The notes beneath the pieces were generated by a model. The model saw only the letters and a program-made list of their open reading frames with translations, did not search any database and was not told where the DNA came from. From positions 6,503 through 70,502 of the forward strand of contig JALHOM010000005.1 in assembly GCA_022842995.1 (NCBI GenBank): a stretch of DNA of 64,000 bases, written 5' to 3'. Below, piece by piece: positions 7,054-64,000 of this stretch (within the stretch, counting starts at the first letter, position 1; every line of letters begins with the position of its first letter). The position numbers and the translations under genes were made by a program. Origin of the DNA: Candidatus Saccharimonadota bacterium (GTDB lineage: Bacteria > Patescibacteriota > Saccharimonadia > Saccharimonadales > 2-12-FULL-41-12).

Positions 7054-9663
7054 ATGGCTAAGAAACCAAAAGATAACGATGACAGTGGCATAACCTACTT
7101 CGGTGAGGCTATTGATCCTGATATTCAGAAAAAAGTCGATGACTACATGGAGCTCGAAGATGAAGTCGCGGGCGAAGCCGATAGTATTCCTGACGAGCCT
7201 CAAGTTGATTTAGGTGGTGTTGGAGTACGTGATCCCGAGGTTGAGAGCGCCCCTCTTCTGCCAACGGACAAATTACCGGATGATCTAAAGGCCGACAAGT
7301 CAGGAGTCAAAAAGTCCACTAAAGTGGCGGTCCTGCATGCGGATGAATTAGTTAAAGAAGTCGAGGACGCTGGAGCGATAGAGACTGACGCCGGTGGAAT
7401 TCCCGGCGACACTCCAGGGCTGAACGATGAGGCGGAAATACAGCCCGCGGCCGAAGAGGCTGATTTGGCTGCGGCCGAAGAACTGGTTCAATCTCAGCCG
7501 GCTAAAAAGCCAAATTCAAAGAAGATTATGGTAGCTCATGATGAGGACCCTGAAGAGAATGTAGGCCCTGATGTTGAGCCAAGCGAAGAGCCTGCGATAG
7601 ATTCTGTGGACGCGCCGGTCAAAGCTGATGAAAATGTTGCTCAAGGCGAACTTGAGCCTCAGTCGAATAAGATAAATATTCGCGTCGACGAATCTGAAAA
7701 TTCGTCCGCTGATCGGGAGCCGACAGTCGACGATGACGCCGAGGCCTCCGATGTCGTACATCTGGCGGATGAAGAAATAGAGGCTCTGTCCGACGAGCAA
7801 GATGACGACGAAGAGTTTGATCAGAATGCAACTGTTGGTGAATACCTCGATGATTTAGAAGCGAATGACGAACCTAAGGCTCCCCTGCATCAGGCTCAAG
7901 ATCTGACCGACTTTGTTCCAAAGGAATCTTCCACTATTAATTCTTCTATTCCAATGGATGACGCAGTAACCTCGCAGGCGATTGCCGATATCATGGCTAC
8001 CGACTCCGATACGTTGCTTGGTATTGAAGACAAGAATAAGAAAGAAGCGCCACCGTTAGCGGTTGAACCAAAGAAGAAGAAAAGTAAGGCGAAACGACCG
8101 AATATCTTTAAGCTTCTTTTCACGAAGCCGCTCTATAGAAATAGTCTTATTGCGGCTATTTTATTGGGTATCGGAGCTGTCGCCGCAGTTCCGGTGTCGC
8201 GTTATTATATGCTTAATGCGGCCGGCGTACGCGTTTCTACAAGTCTTAAAGTTTTAGACGAAAAAACATCCCTGCCTCTGAAAAATGTTGAGGTTACTGT
8301 TGACGGAAAAAGTTCGAAAACCGATGGCGATGGCAATGTGTCATTGAGCGGCATTCGGCTTGGCAGGCAAGAGATCGTCGTTAAAAAGCCAGCTTTTGCC
8401 GAACTGAAGAAAACACATGTCTTAGGCTGGGGGAGTAACCCATTAGGTGATTACCGTATTGCTCCTACTGGCATTCAGTACAGCTTCAAGTTAATCGACT
8501 GGCTTTCTGAGAGACCAATAGCCGGCGGGGAAGTGTCTTATGGAGAAGCGGTGGCAAAGATCAGCGAAAAAGGTGAGGCGGTCTTGACGTTACCTGCAGC
8601 CGAAGAAACGACTATAACCGTTGATATTAAGGGTGATAATTATCGGATCGAGAAACAAGAGGTGAAAACCACAGCCAAAGACCAGATAGTGGTTAAGCTA
8701 GTTCCAAGTAAAAAACATGTCTTTGTATCAAAGCAGAGCGGTAAATACGATCTCTATAGCGTAGATGTTGACGGCAAAAACGAAGAAGTTTTGGTGAGTG
8801 GATCGGGTGTTGAAAAGCCAGATAGTCTGGGGATCGCACTTCATCCTAAGAAGAACATGGTTGCCTATACGGCGAGTCGTGAGAACACTAGAAATCAGGA
8901 CGGTTTTGTATTGACGACACTTTACATGGTTGACCTTGAGTCTAAGGAGATTAAGAAAGTTACGCAGTCGGAAAGAATTCAGATTATTGATTGGATAGGC
9001 GATAGGTTCGTTTATGTCAAAGTGGCCCAGGGTGCGTCCGAAGCGACGCCAGATAGGAACCGGTTGGTAAGTTATGACCTGGAATCTGGTCAGGAAAAAG
9101 AGCTGGCCAGCACTAATTACTTTAATGACGTTATTTCGGCCGGCGGAGCCCTGTATTACAGCCCGGCTCAATATCAAGTTACCGGCAGTGTTGGTTTGTA
9201 TAAAATCAATGCCGATGGCAGTAACAAAAAAACAATTTTCCAAAAAGAAGTATGGAATCTCTTTAGAACTAGCTTTGACAAATTAAGCCTGTCGGTTGGC
9301 CAAGATTGGTACGAACTTACTTTGGCTAACGATAGCCTGACAAAAGTCGGCGGAGCACCAAGCGTCCTTAAATCACGGGTCTATGTGCCAGACAGTGACG
9401 GCAAACGAAATCTTTGGATTGATGAAAGAGACGGCAAGACGGTTCTTATGAATTACCAAACTGCCACTAAATCTGAACAGCCACTGATCACACAATCGGG
9501 TATTCGAAATCCTGTTCGATGGCTTGATGATGGTCATATTATCTACCGCGTGTCTGATGGCCAGGAAACGGCGGACTACGTCTACTCTATAAATGGTAGC
9601 GATCCAAAGAAAATTAGAGACGTCACCAATACGGCTGGCATTGATCGCTGGTACTATTTTTAA
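7054..9663 (+). CDS. large hypothetical protein: acidic disordered N-terminus, one TM helix, carboxypeptidase-regulatory-like and TolB/PD40-like beta-propeller region
   Basis: 869-aa ORF. About 340 aa are D/E/P-rich low-complexity sequence, followed by a TM helix (SLIAAILLGIGAVAAVPV), then beta-rich repeats (GKYDLYSVDVDGKN, DGKRNLWIDERDGK) of TolB/PD40 style. Confidence 0.55.
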   Translation: MAKKPKDNDDSGITYFGEAIDPDIQKKVDDYMELEDEVAGEADSIPDEPQVDLGGVGVRDPEVESAPLLPTDKLPDDLKADKSGVKKSTKVAVLHADELVKEVEDAGAIETDAGGIPGDTPGLNDEAEIQPAAEEADLAAAEELVQSQPAKKPNSKKIMVAHDEDPEENVGPDVEPSEEPAIDSVDAPVKADENVAQGELEPQSNKINIRVDESENSSADREPTVDDDAEASDVVHLADEEIEALSDEQDDDEEFDQNATVGEYLDDLEANDEPKAPLHQAQDLTDFVPKESSTINSSIPMDDAVTSQAIADIMATDSDTLLGIEDKNKKEAPPLAVEPKKKKSKAKRPNIFKLLFTKPLYRNSLIAAILLGIGAVAAVPVSRYYMLNAAGVRVSTSLKVLDEKTSLPLKNVEVTVDGKSSKTDGDGNVSLSGIRLGRQEIVVKKPAFAELKKTHVLGWGSNPLGDYRIAPTGIQYSFKLIDWLSERPIAGGEVSYGEAVAKISEKGEAVLTLPAAEETTITVDIKGDNYRIEKQEVKTTAKDQIVVKLVPSKKHVFVSKQSGKYDLYSVDVDGKNEEVLVSGSGVEKPDSLGIALHPKKNMVAYTASRENTRNQDGFVLTTLYMVDLESKEIKKVTQSERIQIIDWIGDRFVYVKVAQGASEATPDRNRLVSYDLESGQEKELASTNYFNDVISAGGALYYSPAQYQVTGSVGLYKINADGSNKKTIFQKEVWNLFRTSFDKLSLSVGQDWYELTLANDSLTKVGGAPSVLKSRVYVPDSDGKRNLWIDERDGKTVLMNYQTATKSEQPLITQSGIRNPVRWLDDGHIIYRVSDGQETADYVYSINGSDPKKIRDVTNTAGIDRWYYF

Positions 9664-27424: not shown

Positions 27425-27778
27425 TGGTGGGGGCGGCTGGACTTGAACCAGCGACCAATCGGTTATGCGTACCACTACAGCTTTCGCTGCCTTTTTCAAG
27501 TTTGCTGGTCTGGACTGTCTCTTCATCCGCTATGTATAACGGAGCCTGCCATTCAGTCTCTACACCTTCCCGTGTTTTTTACGCGACGGGCTTGGCTCGG
27601 GATTACCATATTAAAGGCTTCCCCGAATTTGACAGGATATACTTACTAGTTACCCGGTAAGCAGCCCTTTTTTATGCGACATGTCTAAGGCTGAAATCTG
27701 ATAATAAAATCAGTGCAGAATTTAGATTTAGTTACATGTAAATTGAGCCGACTGCTCTAACCACTGAGCTACGCCCCC
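27425..27778 (-). tRNA. tRNA(CAU), ileX/tRNA-Ile2-like (or elongator Met), interrupted by a group I intron in the anticodon loop
   Basis: Joined exons give the 76-nt sequence GGGGGCGTAGCTCAGTGGTTAGAGCAGTCGGCT|CATAACCGATTGGTCGCTGGTTCAAGTCCAGCCGCCCCCACCA. This is a full cloverleaf with a G1-C72 pair (not initiator-like), anticodon CAT and an encoded CCA. The D-loop and TTGGTCGCTGGTTCAAGTCCAGC match E. coli ileX as I remember it. Confidence 0.85.
27468..27745 (-). ncRNA. group I intron, subgroup IC3 (Azoarcus/Anabaena tRNA-intron type), 278 nt, no ORF
   Basis: The minus-sense sequence contains GTCAAATTCGGGGAAGCCT, TATGGTAATCCCGAGCCAAGC and GAAGGTGTAGAGACTGAATGGCAGG. These are near-identical to core strings of the Azoarcus tRNA-Ile intron as recalled. 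P3 CCTG/CAGG, P7 GACTG/CAGTC and a P9 CAGC-GAAA-GCTG hairpin are present. The 5' exon ends in U33 and the intron ends in G. Confidence 0.85.
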
Positions 27779-60133: not shown

Positions 60134-61360
60134 TTACTCAGCCTGAGCTTTTGCAGGTTGTGTTAACGAATATACGGCGGCGCTATGCGCACGTACAAGC
60201 ATCTGGCGAACCGCTTCGGCTGTCTCTTCGTCTGAAAGCATGGTGTTATTTAGTATTTGATCAGGTACTTTAAGACCTAGTACTTTAGTTATTAGTTCAG
60301 CTTTCCGTTGTAGTATTCGATCAATTGTTACCGTGTCGTTATCGGCGACGAGAGTGATGTTATCTGGATATTGGATAGGTTCTCGTTGGCTGTTATTTTT
60401 ATAGAACTCTAAGAATTGGTTCCATAGATCCTGTTCGGGCACTTCTGAAAGTTGGACAAGGGCGTCAAAATGAGATTTGAGTTTTTGGGCGCCCATGCCG
60501 CTGACGTGGTGTAACTCATATTTGTACTCGTGCTCGCCCATCCGGGACTCAGTTGCGTTAATCCATGACTCTAAGCTTGTTCCTGCAAGTCGCAGGGCAT
60601 TTTCTCTTATCCTGGCAATTCTATTGGATCTTTCTACTAAGACTTCTTCGCTTTCGGGTATGCGTAAGAACTCTACGTTTTCTTCACTTAACATTTGCGC
60701 GCCAAGGACTCTCGGGTCTTGATTTCTAATTTGGTAACGCTCGGACACAATTCTTTTAGCTAATTTCATTTTTGCGATATGATATTCTTTTTGAGCAAAA
60801 ATATCTTCAGAAAGCATTTGAGCAATAGCGAGTAGTTCTTCTACCGGTAATTCTTCGCCTGTTGGATCTTGATCGGTACGGTATGTATCTAGATCACTTA
60901 AAGCGGACCTGGCGTTTAATACGCGCTCAGTCGCGTCATTGGTCTGCTTGGTTATTTTTAGTCGTTCCTGGATCTCTTCCCCTTGAAGAAACTTTTGAGT
61001 CACTTCAGTCAGTAAGATAGATTCGGCAGAATTAGGGTTAGTATAAGGGCTTCCTTCAGCTTCGGCTGAGGCAACTATTCTGATTCCGTATACCATGTTA
61101 ATGGTTCGATTGACAGCTTCAGACTTTGAGAGTTCGTTAAGGCTAGACAATACTCCTGGTAAATCTTTGTTCCGTACTTTTTGAAGTGCCATTAAAATGA
61201 ATTGATCATCGACTTGATTTGGGTCCATCAAGCCTACGACCTCAAGGATATCTCGGGCAAAAGTATAATCGTCATCTGCGCCACTAGGTGCATCGAAGTC
61301 TGCACGGTAAGAGAGCGCAGTTGAGGCAGTATCGGGATTTAAACGCCATGTCTCGTTCAT
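60134..61360 (-). CDS. hypothetical helical protein
   Basis: 408-aa ORF with no recognisable motif. Confidence 0.5.
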   Translation of the reverse strand: MNETWRLNPDTASTALSYRADFDAPSGADDDYTFARDILEVVGLMDPNQVDDQFILMALQKVRNKDLPGVLSSLNELSKSEAVNRTINMVYGIRIVASAEAEGSPYTNPNSAESILLTEVTQKFLQGEEIQERLKITKQTNDATERVLNARSALSDLDTYRTDQDPTGEELPVEELLAIAQMLSEDIFAQKEYHIAKMKLAKRIVSERYQIRNQDPRVLGAQMLSEENVEFLRIPESEEVLVERSNRIARIRENALRLAGTSLESWINATESRMGEHEYKYELHHVSGMGAQKLKSHFDALVQLSEVPEQDLWNQFLEFYKNNSQREPIQYPDNITLVADNDTVTIDRILQRKAELITKVLGLKVPDQILNNTMLSDEETAEAVRQMLVRAHSAAVYSLTQPAKAQAE

Positions 61361-61477
61361 TAAATATTATTATACCATATTTCTCTACGTTAAAGAAATA
61401 TTTGTCAAATAGATTAATGAATGTGTCTTAGGGGAAATTGAGGGCAGGGAAATGCACGTTGTTCTTGGCCTGAAAGC

Positions 61478-61514
61478 GCCAGGGCAAACGCACGACTACA
61501 GCCATGCTTGGAAT
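61478..61514. repeat. partial copy (37 nt) of element X, copy X1
   Basis: GCCAGGGCAAACGCACGACTACAGCCATGCTTGGAAT matches 63320-63356 and 61691-61727 with a few substitutions. Confidence 0.85.
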
Positions 61515-61520
61515 GTATTG

Positions 61521-61659
61521 TAGTGGCCAGGACTCGCCCACGTTCCGCGGTCACTTTCAGCGACCCCGAGATTTCGTTCAATCAAGCACAGTTTGATGAA
61601 GAAAGTCTCCTTGCAATGAGCCCACTGGGCTTTTTCACCTGGGACCTTTTAGCGTCCTG
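61521..61659 (-). repeat. element Y copy A: degenerate tRNA-fMet 3' portion with a ~101-nt insert in the T-loop
   Basis: It shares GGCCAGGACTCG-CCCACGTTCCGCGG and AGCCCACTGGGCTTTTTCA-CCTGGGACCTTTTAGCGTCCTG with copies B and C. The middle of the insert is unrelated. Confidence 0.85.
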
Positions 61660-61690
61660 GAGCCGAGACATAAGCGCATGTTCAAAAAAA

Positions 61691-61727
61691 GCCAGGGCAA
61701 GCGCACGACTGCAACCATGCTCGGAAT
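61691..61727. repeat. partial copy (37 nt) of element X, copy X2
   Basis: GCCAGGGCAAGCGCACGACTGCAACCATGCTCGGAAT. It is followed at 61733-61762 by GGGGCCAGGAATATAGCTTCGCGCCGG, which combines a tRNA acceptor/T-stem fragment with the motif also present at 63803-63820. Confidence 0.85.
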
Positions 61728-62019
61728 GCATAGAAGGGGCCAGGAATATAGCTTCGCGCCGGCTCGTCTAGATTAATTTAAAAAGGTAGGACGAGTCGGG
61801 CTCTGCTTATAATTTGCACGATGCAAATTATCGAACCTTTTTGGCTCAAGCCCTAGACCCAAAATACCAAGAAAAAACAGCCACACGAGGTGACTGTCTT
61901 TTCTTGGTAGATTACGTGCAATCGAATTGAAACCTAATCTCAGCTTAGTTATTGAAGTGCCGGGCTATATGAATTTCATGAGTTTGAAAGAATTTGCTGT
62001 ATTGAGTGTTTTGCTATAA

Positions 62020-63096
62020 CTATTTGATTTTGAAACCGACTCTTATTTTACCTATGCCTTTTTCGGCGCTTACAGCATCATTAACAGTAATTGCGTCGGC
62101 TCGCGTAGGGGCATCAATCCCAAGGGTAGTTTCAATAGTGCTCCCAGCCGCAACGTCTGGTTGGAAGGGCTGGCCTGGCATGGGATAAATACCGCCTGCC
62201 TCTGAATATGTTCCTTGCTGCGAAGCGGAGCCTATATTCGACAGCCGAAACGGCTTATCCGTAGAATTTTCAATTCTTAATGTAGTTATTACAAATATTC
62301 CTACATACGCTTTTTCATTGCCGAGTGTCGGACTAAACTCTGTCTTTAATATGGTTACCTTAACCCCATCTACTTCTGCCGTAGAGCCGAGCGGAAGACG
62401 TTTGTCTTGTGTGGGCGTCGGTGAAATTGGCTCAGGTGAAATTATTTGTTGCGCATTATTGTGTGATAGTAAAGCAGAGATTCCACCAAATACTACGGTA
62501 GTCACAATGACAGTAATAATTAAGTATGTCTTCTTAAGCTTGACACTAAATTTCAATAGAAGCGTATAAATAACAAAGAAAAAGAGCAATGAGACAATTA
62601 GGAACACCGTATCCTTGACGAAGTGCATTAAAATTCCCGGTATCAAAAATAGCAAGTGAGCGATTATTATATTTCGTTTTTGCACCCAAGTCATGTTAAA
62701 TAGCCGCAATATTCCAAAGACCAGAAGCGGTGCTAGCGTTATGAAAAGTAGAGGTAAAATAAATAGTTCGAGCAGCAGCGAATCGAATATGCCAAATCGG
62801 TACACGAAGAACGAAGAGCCAAAAATTATTTTCAGTAAGGCAACAACCAAAGTACTGAAGATCGCCAACATATATAGATTTTGTGGTTTGAATGCCGTAA
62901 TCTCTTTTGATGCCCTATTGTCATTTTCAAATGGTTTAAATGATTCATGTATATGTTCTTCACTCCATCCATGATTGCGAAAATGATCTTGTAGTTGATT
63001 AATAGGATAGCCATGCCGCAGATGCTCTTTGATGTATTCATGGATACTATGTTTATTATCTAACATGTCACTGATTATAACAGCCAGGAACTTCAT
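62020..63096 (-). CDS. polytopic membrane protein with C-terminal extracellular beta-rich domain (DUF4352-like)
   Basis: ORF 62020..63267. Its first 57 codons are read from the tRNA-derived repeat, and the same 36 aa also head the spurious ORF 63311..63589. The real start is taken as ATG 63096 (MKFLAVIISD...). It has five or six TM helices, then GSTAEVDGVKVTILKTEF...FVITTLRIENSTDKPF. The gene looks AT-rich by eye. Confidence 0.55.
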   Translation of the reverse strand: MKFLAVIISDMLDNKHSIHEYIKEHLRHGYPINQLQDHFRNHGWSEEHIHESFKPFENDNRASKEITAFKPQNLYMLAIFSTLVVALLKIIFGSSFFVYRFGIFDSLLLELFILPLLFITLAPLLVFGILRLFNMTWVQKRNIIIAHLLFLIPGILMHFVKDTVFLIVSLLFFFVIYTLLLKFSVKLKKTYLIITVIVTTVVFGGISALLSHNNAQQIISPEPISPTPTQDKRLPLGSTAEVDGVKVTILKTEFSPTLGNEKAYVGIFVITTLRIENSTDKPFRLSNIGSASQQGTYSEAGGIYPMPGQPFQPDVAAGSTIETTLGIDAPTRADAITVNDAVSAEKGIGKIRVGFKIK

Positions 63097-63157
63097 CCTG
63101 TCGAATATGATTCGGACTAAAAAAGAATCACTTAGATAGCATCTATGTAATATCGAA

Positions 63158-63286
63158 ATGGTAGCGGGGCCAGGACTCGCCCACGTTCCGCGGGCCCGCC
63201 ACAACATCTTTGCAAAGCCAGTTTGCAAGAGTTGATGGCCTTGCAAAAGCCCACTGGGCTTTCTCACCTGGGACCTTTAGCGTCCT
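63158..63286 (-). repeat. element Y copy B: tRNA-fMet 3' portion (position ~44 to CCA) with an 87-nt insert in the T-loop
   Basis: Minus sense: CAGGACGCTAAAGGTCCCAGG-T-[GAGAAAGCCCAGTGGGCTTTTGCAAGG...GGCGGGCCCGCGGAACGTGGG]-CGAGTCCTGGCCCCGCTACCA. The flanks are identical to the genuine tRNA at 63670-63700. Confidence 0.9.
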
Positions 63287-63318
63287 GAAAATGGAATCTA
63301 GGGATATGATTTATAAAA

Positions 63319-63439
63319 AGGGCCAGGGCAAACGCACGGCTACAGCCATGCTCGGAATAAATTCCTGCGCGTGGCTTTGCCGACCGAACCGTGTGACCTT
63401 CGCCAGCAAGCTGGCGGGTCCCAGGTTCAAGCCCTGGCC
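63319..63439. repeat. element X (full copy): 121-nt hairpin-rich element closed by a perfect 10-bp stem GGGCCAGGGC/GCCCTGGCCC
   Basis: Positions 63416-63439 are an inverted, uninterrupted copy of the tRNA-fMet T-arm/acceptor junction (22 of 24 nt match 63677-63700). Internal hairpins are CGCCAG-CTTG-CTGGCG, GGAA-TTTA-TTCC and GCATGGC-TGTA-GCCGTGC (minus sense). Confidence 0.9.
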
Positions 63440-63441
63440 CA

Positions 63442-63472
63442 TAAAGAAAAAAATCCCAGCAAATGCTGAGAT
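63442..63472 (-). terminator. Rho-independent terminator downstream of Y copy C
   Basis: Minus sense: AATCTCAGC-ATTT-GCTGGGATT followed by TTTTTTTCTTT. Confidence 0.7.
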
Positions 63473-63479
63473 TCTTTTC

Positions 63480-63607
63480 TTGGTAGCGGGGCCAGGACTC
63501 GCCCACGTTCCGCGGGCCCGCCACAACATCTTTGCAAAGCCAGTTTGCAAGAGTTGATGGCCTTGCAAAAGCCCACTGGGCTTTCTCACCTGGGACCTTT
63601 AGCGTCC
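63480..63607 (-). repeat. element Y copy C (identical to copy B over ~127 nt; 322-bp period)
   Basis: By eye, 63480-63606 is identical to 63158-63284. The copies diverge beyond GCGTCC. Confidence 0.9.
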
Positions 63608-63633
63608 CAGCCTCGAGTCCGGCATCACCGACC

Positions 63634-63663
63634 AAGTAAAAGACCCCATCTTGCGATGAGGTC
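63634..63663 (-). terminator. Rho-independent terminator of tRNA-fMet
   Basis: Minus sense: GGACCTCATC-GCAA-GATGGGGTCT (GNRA loop, two G-U pairs) followed by TTTTACTT. It starts 6 nt after the CCA end. Confidence 0.65.
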
Positions 63664-63669
63664 CATTAC

Positions 63670-63744
63670 TTGGTAGCGGGGCCAGGACTCGAACCTGGGA
63701 CCTTGTGGTTATGAGCCACACGAGCTGCCACTGCTCTACCCCGC
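63670..63744 (-). tRNA. tRNA-fMet (initiator-like, anticodon CAU), CCA encoded
   Basis: CGCGGGGTAGAGCAGTGGCAGCTCGTGTGGCTCATAACCACAAGGTCCCAGGTTCGAGTCCTGGCCCCGCTACCA. The 5' CGCGGGG...GAGCAG resembles the E. coli initiator and positions 1:72 are unpaired (C:U). The anticodon stem has only two consecutive G-C pairs instead of three. Confidence 0.85.
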
Positions 63745-63762
63745 GATATATATTGTGTACTT

Positions 63763-63789
63763 GATTATAGCTGATTGGGCGATTACACA
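63763..63789 (-). promoter_or_regulatory. candidate sigma70-type promoter of tRNA-fMet
   Basis: Minus sense: TTGTGT (63784-63789), a 15-nt spacer, then TATAAT (63763-63768), 18 nt upstream of tRNA position 1. The spacer is short, so confidence is low. Confidence 0.3.
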
Positions 63790-63795
63790 ACCAGC

Positions 63796-63922
63796 ATTGT
63801 GGTTATATTGCTTCGCGCCGGGATCACTATTTCTATAAGGGAAGGTGACCTCGGGCTCGGCATATATTCTCCTTGATCAGTCGAATATGAGCCGCTCGCG
63901 AGCTGCCACTGCTCTACCCCGC
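63796..63922 (-). pseudogene. tRNA-fMet-derived fragment: positions 1-37 and 38-46 separated by a ~79-nt insert in the anticodon loop; T-arm and acceptor 3' strand missing
   Basis: Minus sense: CGCGGGGTAGAGCAGTGGCAGCTCG (identical to the tRNA for 26 nt, including the upstream ATATAT), then CGAGCGGCTCATA-[insert]-ATAACCACAA. The similarity then fades. Confidence 0.7.
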
Positions 63923-64000
63923 GATATATTAATTTTTTGTCAAAATGGAAAAGCTATTAATCAACTACGGTTAATTATAACAGATGAGGCGACGGTTTTA

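Follow-up and report, generated by a model that had tools for sequence, protein, structure and literature searches.

Archaeal tRNA genes carry bulge-helix-bulge introns at sites that include the T-loop, and transposition of these introns has been proposed; they need the bulge-helix-bulge motif and the archaeal endonuclease, and the tRNA that carries them stays a working one. Rickettsia palindromic elements and rRNA intervening sequences are likewise tolerated within functional genes. Among mobile sequences, the PATEs and REP elements derived from IS200/IS605 are mobilised by HUH/Y1 enzymes, and integron attC as well as the folded attP of CTX phage are recombination sites of ~60-140 nt which fold as single strands and carry bulged bases. 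For integrative elements in tRNA genes, sublocation classes were reportedly distinguished by Williams in 2002. Integration classically leaves partial tRNA duplicates next to tRNA genes (PMC9897764), and tycheposons provide arrays of them (10.1101/2020.12.28.424599). In Patescibacteria, tRNA introns are abundant, and the study describing them does not mention T-loop inserts or tRNA fragments (PMC13011429).

The DNA analysed here is a 64-kb stretch from a Candidatus Saccharimonadota bacterium, the whole of which we call the window. A first-pass annotation, made from the letters alone, had noticed copies of the 3' portion of tRNA-fMet whose T-loop is split by an insert, and had read this insert as an intervening sequence or recombination module with conserved ends around a replaceable core. 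Our results support that reading in part. The insert is indeed a discrete structured unit rather than a product of pseudogene decay, with an architecture that recurs in many genomes, and similar copies in many genomes and different tRNAs agree with the dispersed or recombining module that had been envisaged. It is a three-hairpin module that is previously undescribed; a literature search of limited coverage found no account of such tRNA-loop inserts.

The tRNA-fMet region of the window

The sole tRNA that ARAGORN reports in the window is an intact tRNA-Met(CAT), called initiator-type because C1 faces U72. Its T-arm (tRNA at 63745..63671, minus strand) reads CCAGG-TTCGAGT-CCTGG, just as had been stated. 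Along the minus strand follow the terminator, an inverted copy of the tRNA end, unit Y-C, a terminator copy, Z1, Y-B, an ORF, CTACCA with a terminator, Z2, Y-A and X3, and the features are, in this order and preceded by a duplicate upstream of the tRNA:

63899..63929, minus strand: exact duplicate, 31 nt long, of the first 25 nt of tRNA-fMet and the 6 nt that precede them; a partial copy of upstream type that lacks the Y module
63671..63745, minus strand: intact initiator-type tRNA-Met(CAT) (ARAGORN; Rfam tRNA 62.2 bits), its 3' third duplicated in the Y units
63641..63664, minus strand: intrinsic terminator hairpin of tRNA-fMet, in the middle of an imperfect palindrome with arms of 47 nt
63604..63634, minus strand: degenerate inverted copy of the tRNA-fMet 3' third (TGGTCGGTGATGCCGGACTCGAGGCTGGGAC)
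63481..63607, minus strand: unit Y-C, consisting of variable loop and T-stem 5' strand, T54, module, and C56 to CCA of tRNA-fMet
63502..63587, minus strand: module copy in Y-C with hairpins H1/H2/H3 (cmsearch 97.2 bits, E 5e-24; fold)
63445..63480, minus strand: hairpin and T-run 3' of Y-C, a diverged copy of the tRNA-fMet terminator region, 78% including the CCA end (family D2)
63321..63440, minus strand: Z1, a second kind of unit, with inverted tRNA 3'-end copy, CUUG-capped hairpin, GGTTCGG, another structured insert, and the end GCCCTGGCCC
63159..63285, minus strand: unit Y-B, 100% identical to Y-C, the identity stopping exactly at CCA
63180..63265, minus strand: module copy in Y-B (cmsearch 97.2 bits)
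62020..63069, minus strand: ORF of 349 aa, membrane protein, weak PHROG match only
61865..61909, minus strand: CTACCA (last 6 nt of the tRNA) and terminator hairpin, opening the second block
61691..61860, minus strand: Z2, a paralogue of Z1 with a different middle
61525..61657, minus strand: unit Y-A, with the degenerate 3' end CCTGGCC-ACTACAA
61537..61636, minus strand: module copy in Y-A, long subtype of 100-101 nt with two 3' hairpins (cmsearch 82.1 bits for 61550-61636; fold)
61473..61514, minus strand: X3, third copy of the X hairpin repeat, immediately 3' of Y-A

All three Y units run from the variable loop to the 3' end of tRNA-fMet (...AAGGTCCCAGG-T-insert-CGAGTCCTGGCC...), and in each of them, as originally observed, the T-loop is split after T54 by an insert, which replaces T55. 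The insert measures 87 nt in Y-B and Y-C, which are 100% identical across 127 nt (layout GGACGCTAAAGGTCCCAGG-T-87 nt-CGAGTCCTGGCCCCGCTACCA, T55 absent), and 100-101 nt in Y-A. The 21-mer CGAGTCCTGGCCCCGCTACCA occurs 3 times in the window versus 0 expected, and AAAGCCCAGTGGGCT and CCGCGGAACGTGGG occur once each per Y copy. The interval 63158-63607 to which the element had been assigned contains Y-B and Y-C, but Y-A lies outside it, at 61657..61525 (minus strand); nor does Y-A share the CCCCGCTACCA terminus once ascribed to it, as it finishes CCTGGCC-ACTACAA.

The terminator lies in the inverted repeat I1 (63604-63650 and 63655-63701, 74% complementary), and, as at 63604..63634, the 3' third of the tRNA is found in inverted form ahead of every downstream-type unit at other loci. 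A block with the order CCA-terminator-Z-spacer-Y is present in two copies in the window. The ORF at 62020..63069 lies between them, and because CTACCA repeats bound it there it is probably cargo that was inserted at a pseudo-tRNA 3' end. No homologue of its product (P0001) was found beyond the source genome's own copy, and an exact-protein look-up of three proteins (two window ORFs and P0001) gave no record. The window array clearly belongs to the integration-type tRNA duplicates. The structured insert of Z1 differs from the Y module and includes repeat X. The 11-nt repeat TCATATTCGAC, found at either end of the region, is taken as chance, with ~0.9 expected.

A folded module in the loops of spare tRNA copies

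A scan of 185,579 species genomes with the last 21 nt of tRNA-fMet gave 57 loci in Saccharibacteria and Chloroflexota. At several of the Saccharibacteria loci a second 21-nt match ~185-195 nt downstream corresponds to a Y-type unit; double matches in Dehalococcoidia were rejected as such, being plain tandem tRNA-fMet genes. With a covariance model built from the insert alignment, cmsearch found 13 copies in the window and the genome loci. The search of metagenomes for further variants, which the first-pass annotation had recommended, added 57 copies in 42 contigs, which brings the total for the window and 50 Saccharibacteria loci to 70 copies, with a median pairwise identity of 75%. The metagenome contigs were drawn by one scan with a pattern derived from the module, and their loop sequences and frequencies are therefore biased. 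In this analysis the module was found only in Saccharibacteria.

In Rfam 15, the module in the window region matches nothing but noise, e.g., miRNA families and leaders, at a threshold as loose as E<=10, and over the window and 13 loci nothing but the intact tRNAs and one group I intron exceeded the threshold. Identity with tmRNA, Y RNA, SRP or retron was rejected, since no defining motifs were seen by eye and Rfam, which covers tmRNA, Y RNA/YrlA and ribozymes, gave no match, as was a hammerhead reading of CUGAUGA...GAAA in one copy (L025), which the other copies lack. The exact gapped Y pattern had no match in collections of genome contigs and viral contigs, the Y junction patterns and the metagenome pattern had none in viral contigs, and BLAST of the module found none in phage and plasmid collections.

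The module of ~85 nt (85-101 nt) forms three successive hairpins on the tRNA-sense strand. H1 has 8 bp; H2 has ~17 bp with two bulges of one base each on the 3' side, and its loop is usually CUUG; H3 has 6-7 bp, an invariant G.U pair and usually a GAA loop. The palindromes that had been listed for the Y inserts are present, and they are the arms of these hairpins. Of the swapped core described for Y-A, the difference in sequence stands, but the fold is the same as in Y-B and Y-C: the central hairpin has the identical geometry (4 bp, 1 unpaired nt, 4 bp, a 1-nt 3' bulge, 4 bp, a 1-nt 3' bulge, 4-5 bp, loop), and ~9 pairs differ by double, compensatory changes. The extra 14 nt of Y-A are a second 3' hairpin, a subtype shared with one further locus (L063). 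What is kept is the whole module as a fold, with a core that varies by compensatory substitutions, and not a pair of conserved ends around something replaceable.

A common fold had been proposed as a matter for RNAalifold, and the program, run on 6 insert sequences, returned 25 pairs, 17 of them with compensatory changes. Among the 13 matches from the window and the genome loci (11 distinct sequences), 19 of the 29 pairs scored show double changes and 91.9% of the cells are paired, versus 30-49% with slid partners, figures that lean to the model in so far as the alignments were fitted to it, which the RNAalifold run and the slid-partner control offset in part. None of 500 shuffles (0/500) reached the observed values. 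Over all copies, the predicted pairs contain G.U and A.C at 78:11, and the fold is therefore selected on the tRNA-sense strand in single-stranded form, be it as RNA or as one DNA strand. Hence, the fold is a selected feature of the module. Orthologous units, i.e., units at the same tRNA and site in different contigs, differ by compensatory changes, so that the fold has been kept in place over time; a host function predicts likewise.

The insert had been taken for a feature of tRNA-fMet and its T-loop, but other tRNAs and other loops also carry the module. As many as 48/70 copies lie <=120 nt from an intact co-oriented tRNA, and the tRNAs concerned represent 13 amino-acid specificities (Met and, in the metagenome contigs, Ala, Arg, Gln, Glu, Gly, His, Leu, Lys, Pro, Ser, Trp and Val). 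For most units the distance to the tRNA is 13-120 nt; 32 of the 48 copies are downstream of it, typically by ~70-90 nt, and 16 upstream, typically by ~45 nt. With respect to orientation, 64/70 copies either point the same way as the nearest tRNA or come from loci with no tRNA, and 6/70 are on the opposite strand. The flanks of the tRNA-adjacent copies are truncated fragments of the neighbouring tRNA itself. At downstream units, the intact tRNA is followed by its terminator, TGG with a degenerate inverted copy of the 3' end, a short loop, the T-stem 5' strand, T and the module, and then by (T)CGAxTCC, the 3' strand of the acceptor and CCA. In upstream units, the tRNA from +1 to the insertion site is followed by the module; where this site is the T-loop, the module precedes 8 nt of T-arm, an inverted empty T-arm (..ATTCGAACCC..), a TTAACAAT/TATAAT-like box and the intact gene. 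In 12/12 independent upstream units the duplicated segment begins exactly at tRNA +1, the preceding 30 nt being unrelated.

The commonest site is the T-loop, between T54 and T55. Modules are also found in the D-loop (Trp, L073; Gln, L096; Glu, L079), after position ~25 (Gly-GCC, L082 and L092; Pro, L098) and in the anticodon loop (Pro, L077), and there is one pseudo-copy of tRNA-Gln and one of tRNA-Glu with a module in the D-loop and another in the T-loop. G-T stands directly 5' of the module almost everywhere (L038 is the exception), and since it is kept even where the intact tRNA has no T, this T is probably part of the module. The site has one base fewer than the intact copy, either the G before T54 or T55. 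The same architecture of tRNA fragments also houses structured inserts unrelated to the module, which means that the scaffold, and not the module, could be the functional unit.

The first-pass annotation had considered the element a spliceable intervening sequence of a tRNA-like gene, which our data contradict. The carriers are truncated fragments beside an intact gene, and after deletion of the module in five junction variants each (with or without 1-2 filler bases) ARAGORN found a tRNA in 0/70 cases, the neighbouring intact tRNA genes being recovered in every test. It was right in calling the insert (85-101 nt) too short for a group I intron, and cmscan at E<=10 over 61300-64000 found no match to RF00028. 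A genuine group I intron is present in another tRNA of the window, at 27745..27468. One base is missing at the junction of the module, and excision would therefore leave the T-loop unrestored. The module thus is not an intron of a working tRNA gene; as its copies occupy the loops of truncated spare tRNAs beside the intact gene, it is dispersed and probably mobile.

Several comparisons between loci bear on movement. Modules in different tRNAs and positions are 87-93% identical, e.g., in the D-stem of Pro-TGG and the T-loop of Arg-GCG. In two loci (L016 and L048) the module is inverted and lies exactly within GTCCTGGCC^CCGCTACCA of a Z-type unit, in the acceptor strand, with neither duplication nor loss of target and with its own G.U-bearing strand kept; L048 has an additional truncated copy, a 3' fragment. 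Saccharibacteria tRNA-fMet loci vary in that they carry the module, other inserts or none. In two 99%-identical contigs, which represent strains, the DNA is replaced from inside the acceptor strand of the module-bearing fragment onward. At L067, a CGACCA-terminator-unit block lies away from its tRNA with other DNA between, and blocks that start with the last 6 nt of the tRNA but are apart from it, here and in the window, imply that pseudo-3' ends also bound inserted DNA. No excised form was found, and no clean pair of empty and filled sites in sister strains. The neighbourhood of the modules, taken to 3 kb, holds no recurrent protein family. A Pfam scan of 46 window ORFs showed ordinary chromosomal genes, among them those for an AsnRS-type synthetase, ComEC, IMPDH, DinB and Dus, but neither an integrase nor a transposase nor a reverse transcriptase, and no Y1/HUH transposase was seen in the 64-kb window or in loci of up to 14 kb.

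Possible origins and roles of the module

The existence of one family, its fold, the strand on which it folds, its contexts, its spread among tRNAs and its non-intron status are observations. As the reading that best accommodates them we favour, tentatively, a small non-autonomous mobile module that uses its fold single-stranded, is recognised by a factor acting in trans and targets tRNA loops. Such a module would enter single-stranded hairpin loops of tRNA sequences, and an enzyme supplied in trans presumably recognises it in its folded form. Because it cannot be removed from the tRNA, it would survive only in redundant truncated duplicates, namely 5' fragments upstream and 3' fragments downstream of the intact gene, the latter sitting past the terminator and the inverted copy of the tRNA 3' end. 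We infer that the module moves by itself, through an intermediate that would be single-stranded RNA or DNA. Against this reading count the failure to find an enzyme, an excised form or a clean pair of empty and filled sites, the compensatory changes in orthologous units and the unrelated inserts in the same scaffold. The junctions, too, are not fully clean, and the loss of one base there fits flank co-conversion or recombination better than cut-and-paste. Candidate origins of the duplicates themselves are recombination of the Campbell or one-ended type via tRNA homology, hairpin-driven template switching at the palindromes of terminator and T-arm, and an RNA intermediate; the sharp ends at +1 and CCA are compatible with an RNA intermediate, and also with simple limits set by homology or by functional constraint.

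A serious rival, possible though on the unlikely side, is that the host has selected the module as a cis-acting or small RNA, in which a protein- or ligand-binding domain sits on a scaffold of tRNA fragments and is produced from tRNA transcription units. The anti-T-arm would pair with the T-arm of the module or with the real tRNA and so act as a switch on maturation, termination or stability. The compensatory changes in orthologous units and the strand-specific fold with its excess of G.U pairs speak for this possibility, as does the fact that the module is co-oriented with tRNAs even where these are on the lagging strand (judged by GC skew). Upstream units, moreover, stand inside the expected tRNA leader, between a good TATAAT box and the intact tRNA and with no terminator between, a complementary empty T-arm motif accompanies every unit, and duplicates of the 3' part are found downstream of 38/87 tRNAs and duplicates of the 5' part upstream of 20/87, in what is a biased sample. 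However, the presence of the module is patchy, many tRNA-fMet loci having none or other inserts, its site within the tRNA fragment is variable, and there are two inverted copies and a truncated one. Downstream units follow an intrinsic terminator, the window copies have no predicted promoter (no Y-unit site in the promoter scan exceeds the shuffle background), and the RNA ends are not consistent.

It is doubtful that the module is an agent acting at the RNA level, either as a small mobile RNA that inserts into exposed tRNA loops and returns to DNA in partial retro-copies, or as a riboregulator that controls tRNA maturation with a decoy T-arm and an anti-T-arm. Retro-copies of a mobile RNA would explain why 5' copies start exactly at +1 and why the identity of Y-B and Y-C stops at CCA.

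We consider it improbable that the units are scars of site-specific integration, i.e., attL and attR of integrase- or Xer-type elements, with the module as an arm or as a folded attP-like site in the manner of integron attC or CTX-phage attP. Such events are known to leave partial tRNA duplicates next to intact tRNAs (PMC9897764; 10.1101/2020.12.28.424599), and direct tRNA repeats are present, as 21-23 nt repeats of the tRNA-fMet 3' end and as 5' repeats from +1 in 12/12 upstream units. The arrangement of block array and ORF bounded by CTACCA repeats in the window, the detached block at L067 and the strain difference at a unit boundary are also in line with it, and a duplex resembling the target could form between the inverted and the direct copies of the tRNA 3' end. 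Against this, the module has its place within the T-loop, where the crossover would occur, rather than beside the core, and 5' fragments have it in the D-loop, D-stem and anticodon loop as well. The distance from tRNA to unit is mostly just 70-90 nt, an interval that holds nothing else, and neither a recombinase nor cargo was found between the repeats (units 13-120 nt from the tRNA, window ORFs by Pfam, 3 kb around modules), the cases of detached blocks aside; phage, plasmid and viral collections gave no match.

Hardly credible, finally, is a true T-loop intervening sequence, be it a self-splicing or enzyme-spliced intron or a spacer excised in the manner of RNase III, for although the insert is discrete, structured and set in a stem-closed loop, in a genome with a group I intron in another tRNA and a phylum rich in tRNA introns (PMC13011429), none of the 70 carriers is a complete tRNA, an intact copy of the same tRNA is always alongside, 85 nt is below the size of a group I core, RF00028 finds no match and the junction is one base short.

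Significance and comparison with known systems

The module adds a structured family supported by covariation to a phylum with tiny genomes and scarce non-coding DNA, and many Saccharibacteria tRNA genes turn out to be flanked by truncated copies of themselves with structured inserts of several unrelated families. This is relevant to the role of tRNA genes as landing pads where recognisable enzymes of mobile elements are few, and also to tRNA annotation, since fragments and split T-arms mislead gene finders. If the module acts as an RNA, a new ribonucleoprotein or ribozyme-like activity on tRNA loops could emerge, and an RNA-level agent, if true, would form a class without a described bacterial counterpart.

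Rickettsia palindromic elements and rRNA intervening sequences resemble the module as small structured repeats in genes, RNA genes included, but the module is present only in non-functional partial copies. Archaeal tRNA introns are similar in being short inserts at several tRNA positions that are related in sequence across tRNAs, yet neither the motif with its endonuclease nor the working tRNA is applicable to the module. The group I introns of Patescibacteria (PMC13011429) are likewise structured RNAs in a tRNA-gene loop of the same phylum, whereas they exceed 200 nt, match RF00028, splice and reside in complete functional genes, and the module has 85 nt and truncated copies only.

With integron attC and CTX attP the module shares a definition by fold rather than by sequence, bulges and an occurrence in arrays. 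It differs from them in having three hairpins instead of one, in its position inside a tRNA loop and in the lack of IntI and of R and L boxes (RYYYAAC/GTTRRRY), the R''/L'' and L'/R' boxes being missing from the module consensus. The features of MITEs are lacking, too: the ends GAGAA.. and ..GTGAC/GTAGG are unrelated and flanking duplications are absent. Miniature IS200/IS605 elements and the module are both small and non-coding, with strand-specific hairpins at both ends, no terminal inverted repeats or target duplication, and a short conserved 5'-side sequence (..GGT), the G-T being almost always there in the module. However, the end hairpins of the module are dissimilar, its long central hairpin is conserved, its 3' end has no fixed tetranucleotide, its site loses one base, no TnpA/RAYT was seen and tRNA loops are its sole targets.

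The tRNA fragments of integrative elements are matched by the truncated copies beside an intact gene, by the arrays and by cargo between 3'-end repeats. Here, in contrast, a structured module occupies the loop, cargo is mostly lacking, 5' and 3' fragments are found at many tRNAs and no integrase is linked. It is the conserved three-hairpin module in the loops of spare tRNAs, on the sense strand and at many tRNAs, without cargo or recombinase, that departs from the classic picture of integration.

Partial tRNA copies and their terminators

Among the 87 intact tRNAs of a subset of the Saccharibacteria loci L001-L099, a sample biased because metagenome loci were drawn with a pattern taken from the Y-type module (the structured insert of about 85 nt in loops of truncated tRNA copies), 38 are followed within 450 nt by a repeat of their last 13 nt, and 20 are preceded by a repeat of their first 13 nt. 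The Y-type module is present in only about 60% (35/58) of these end duplications, a proportion subject to the same sampling bias.

The window also carries a 5' partial copy, separated from the intact tRNA-fMet gene by 147 nt of other sequence:

63899-63929, minus strand: exact 31-nt duplicate of the tRNA-fMet start, including 6 nt upstream

The motif CCGGCGCGAAGCNATAT is found twice, at about 63825, between this duplicate and tRNA-fMet, and at about 61765, in the element Z2 described below.

In all downstream units, long palindromes that include CCA/TGG enclose the tRNA terminators (e.g., 63604-63701 of the window) and extend into acceptor and T-arm sequence copied in inverted orientation and now decaying. 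At the core of the T-arm, GGTTCGAACC is identical to its reverse complement, a self-complementarity that may drive fold-back rearrangements.

Inserts other than the Y-type module

A genuine intron interrupts another tRNA gene of the window, between U33 and C34:

27425-27778, minus strand: intron-split tRNA(CAU) gene, recognised by ARAGORN only once the exons were joined
27745..27468, minus strand: group I intron, 278 nt (RF00028, 68 bits)

The Z elements are a second structured insert family, unrelated to the Y-type module and found within the same architecture, in the order inverted tRNA 3' copy, tetraloop hairpin, and GGTTCGG with the insert and the T-stem 3' strand. The G.U pairs of the X hairpin are confined to the minus strand, and relatives in other loci adjoin tRNA-fMet, tRNA-Arg(CCT) and tRNA-Phe (L001, L016, L093, L099).

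63321-63440 (Z1) and 61691-61860 (Z2), minus strand: Z elements
63317-63358, 61691-61727 and 61473-61514, minus strand: X repeat

Beyond Y and Z, the T-loops of tRNA 3' copies host two more insert families, which share a bulged-C CCCC/GGGCG helix and are found at tRNA-fMet, tRNA-Gln and tRNA-Arg:

Family 1: ..ATCAGTCACAGGCCCCAGCGTAGCGGGCGCCTGGATT.. (loci L011, L017, L046, L048, L086)
Family 2: ..AATCCCCCG...CGGGCGGATT.. (loci L031, L046, L067)

Spare tRNA 3' ends as boundaries

Spare tRNA 3' ends may have a role as secondary insertion sites. At a pseudo-tRNA 3' end in the window, CTACCA direct repeats (63159-63164 and 61904-61909) flank an ORF:

62020-63069, minus strand: 349-aa membrane protein, weak PHROG match only

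In L067 the same block, made up of CGACCA, terminator and unit, is separated from its tRNA. Two other contigs, L080 (8326-8570) and L089 (reverse, 8045-8531), are 99% identical and differ by a replaced segment of 224 nt versus 486 nt, respectively. The replacement begins within CCCTCCTCCTC of a module-bearing tRNA-Ser fragment, and the L080 form of the segment is another unit with the same repeat at its end.
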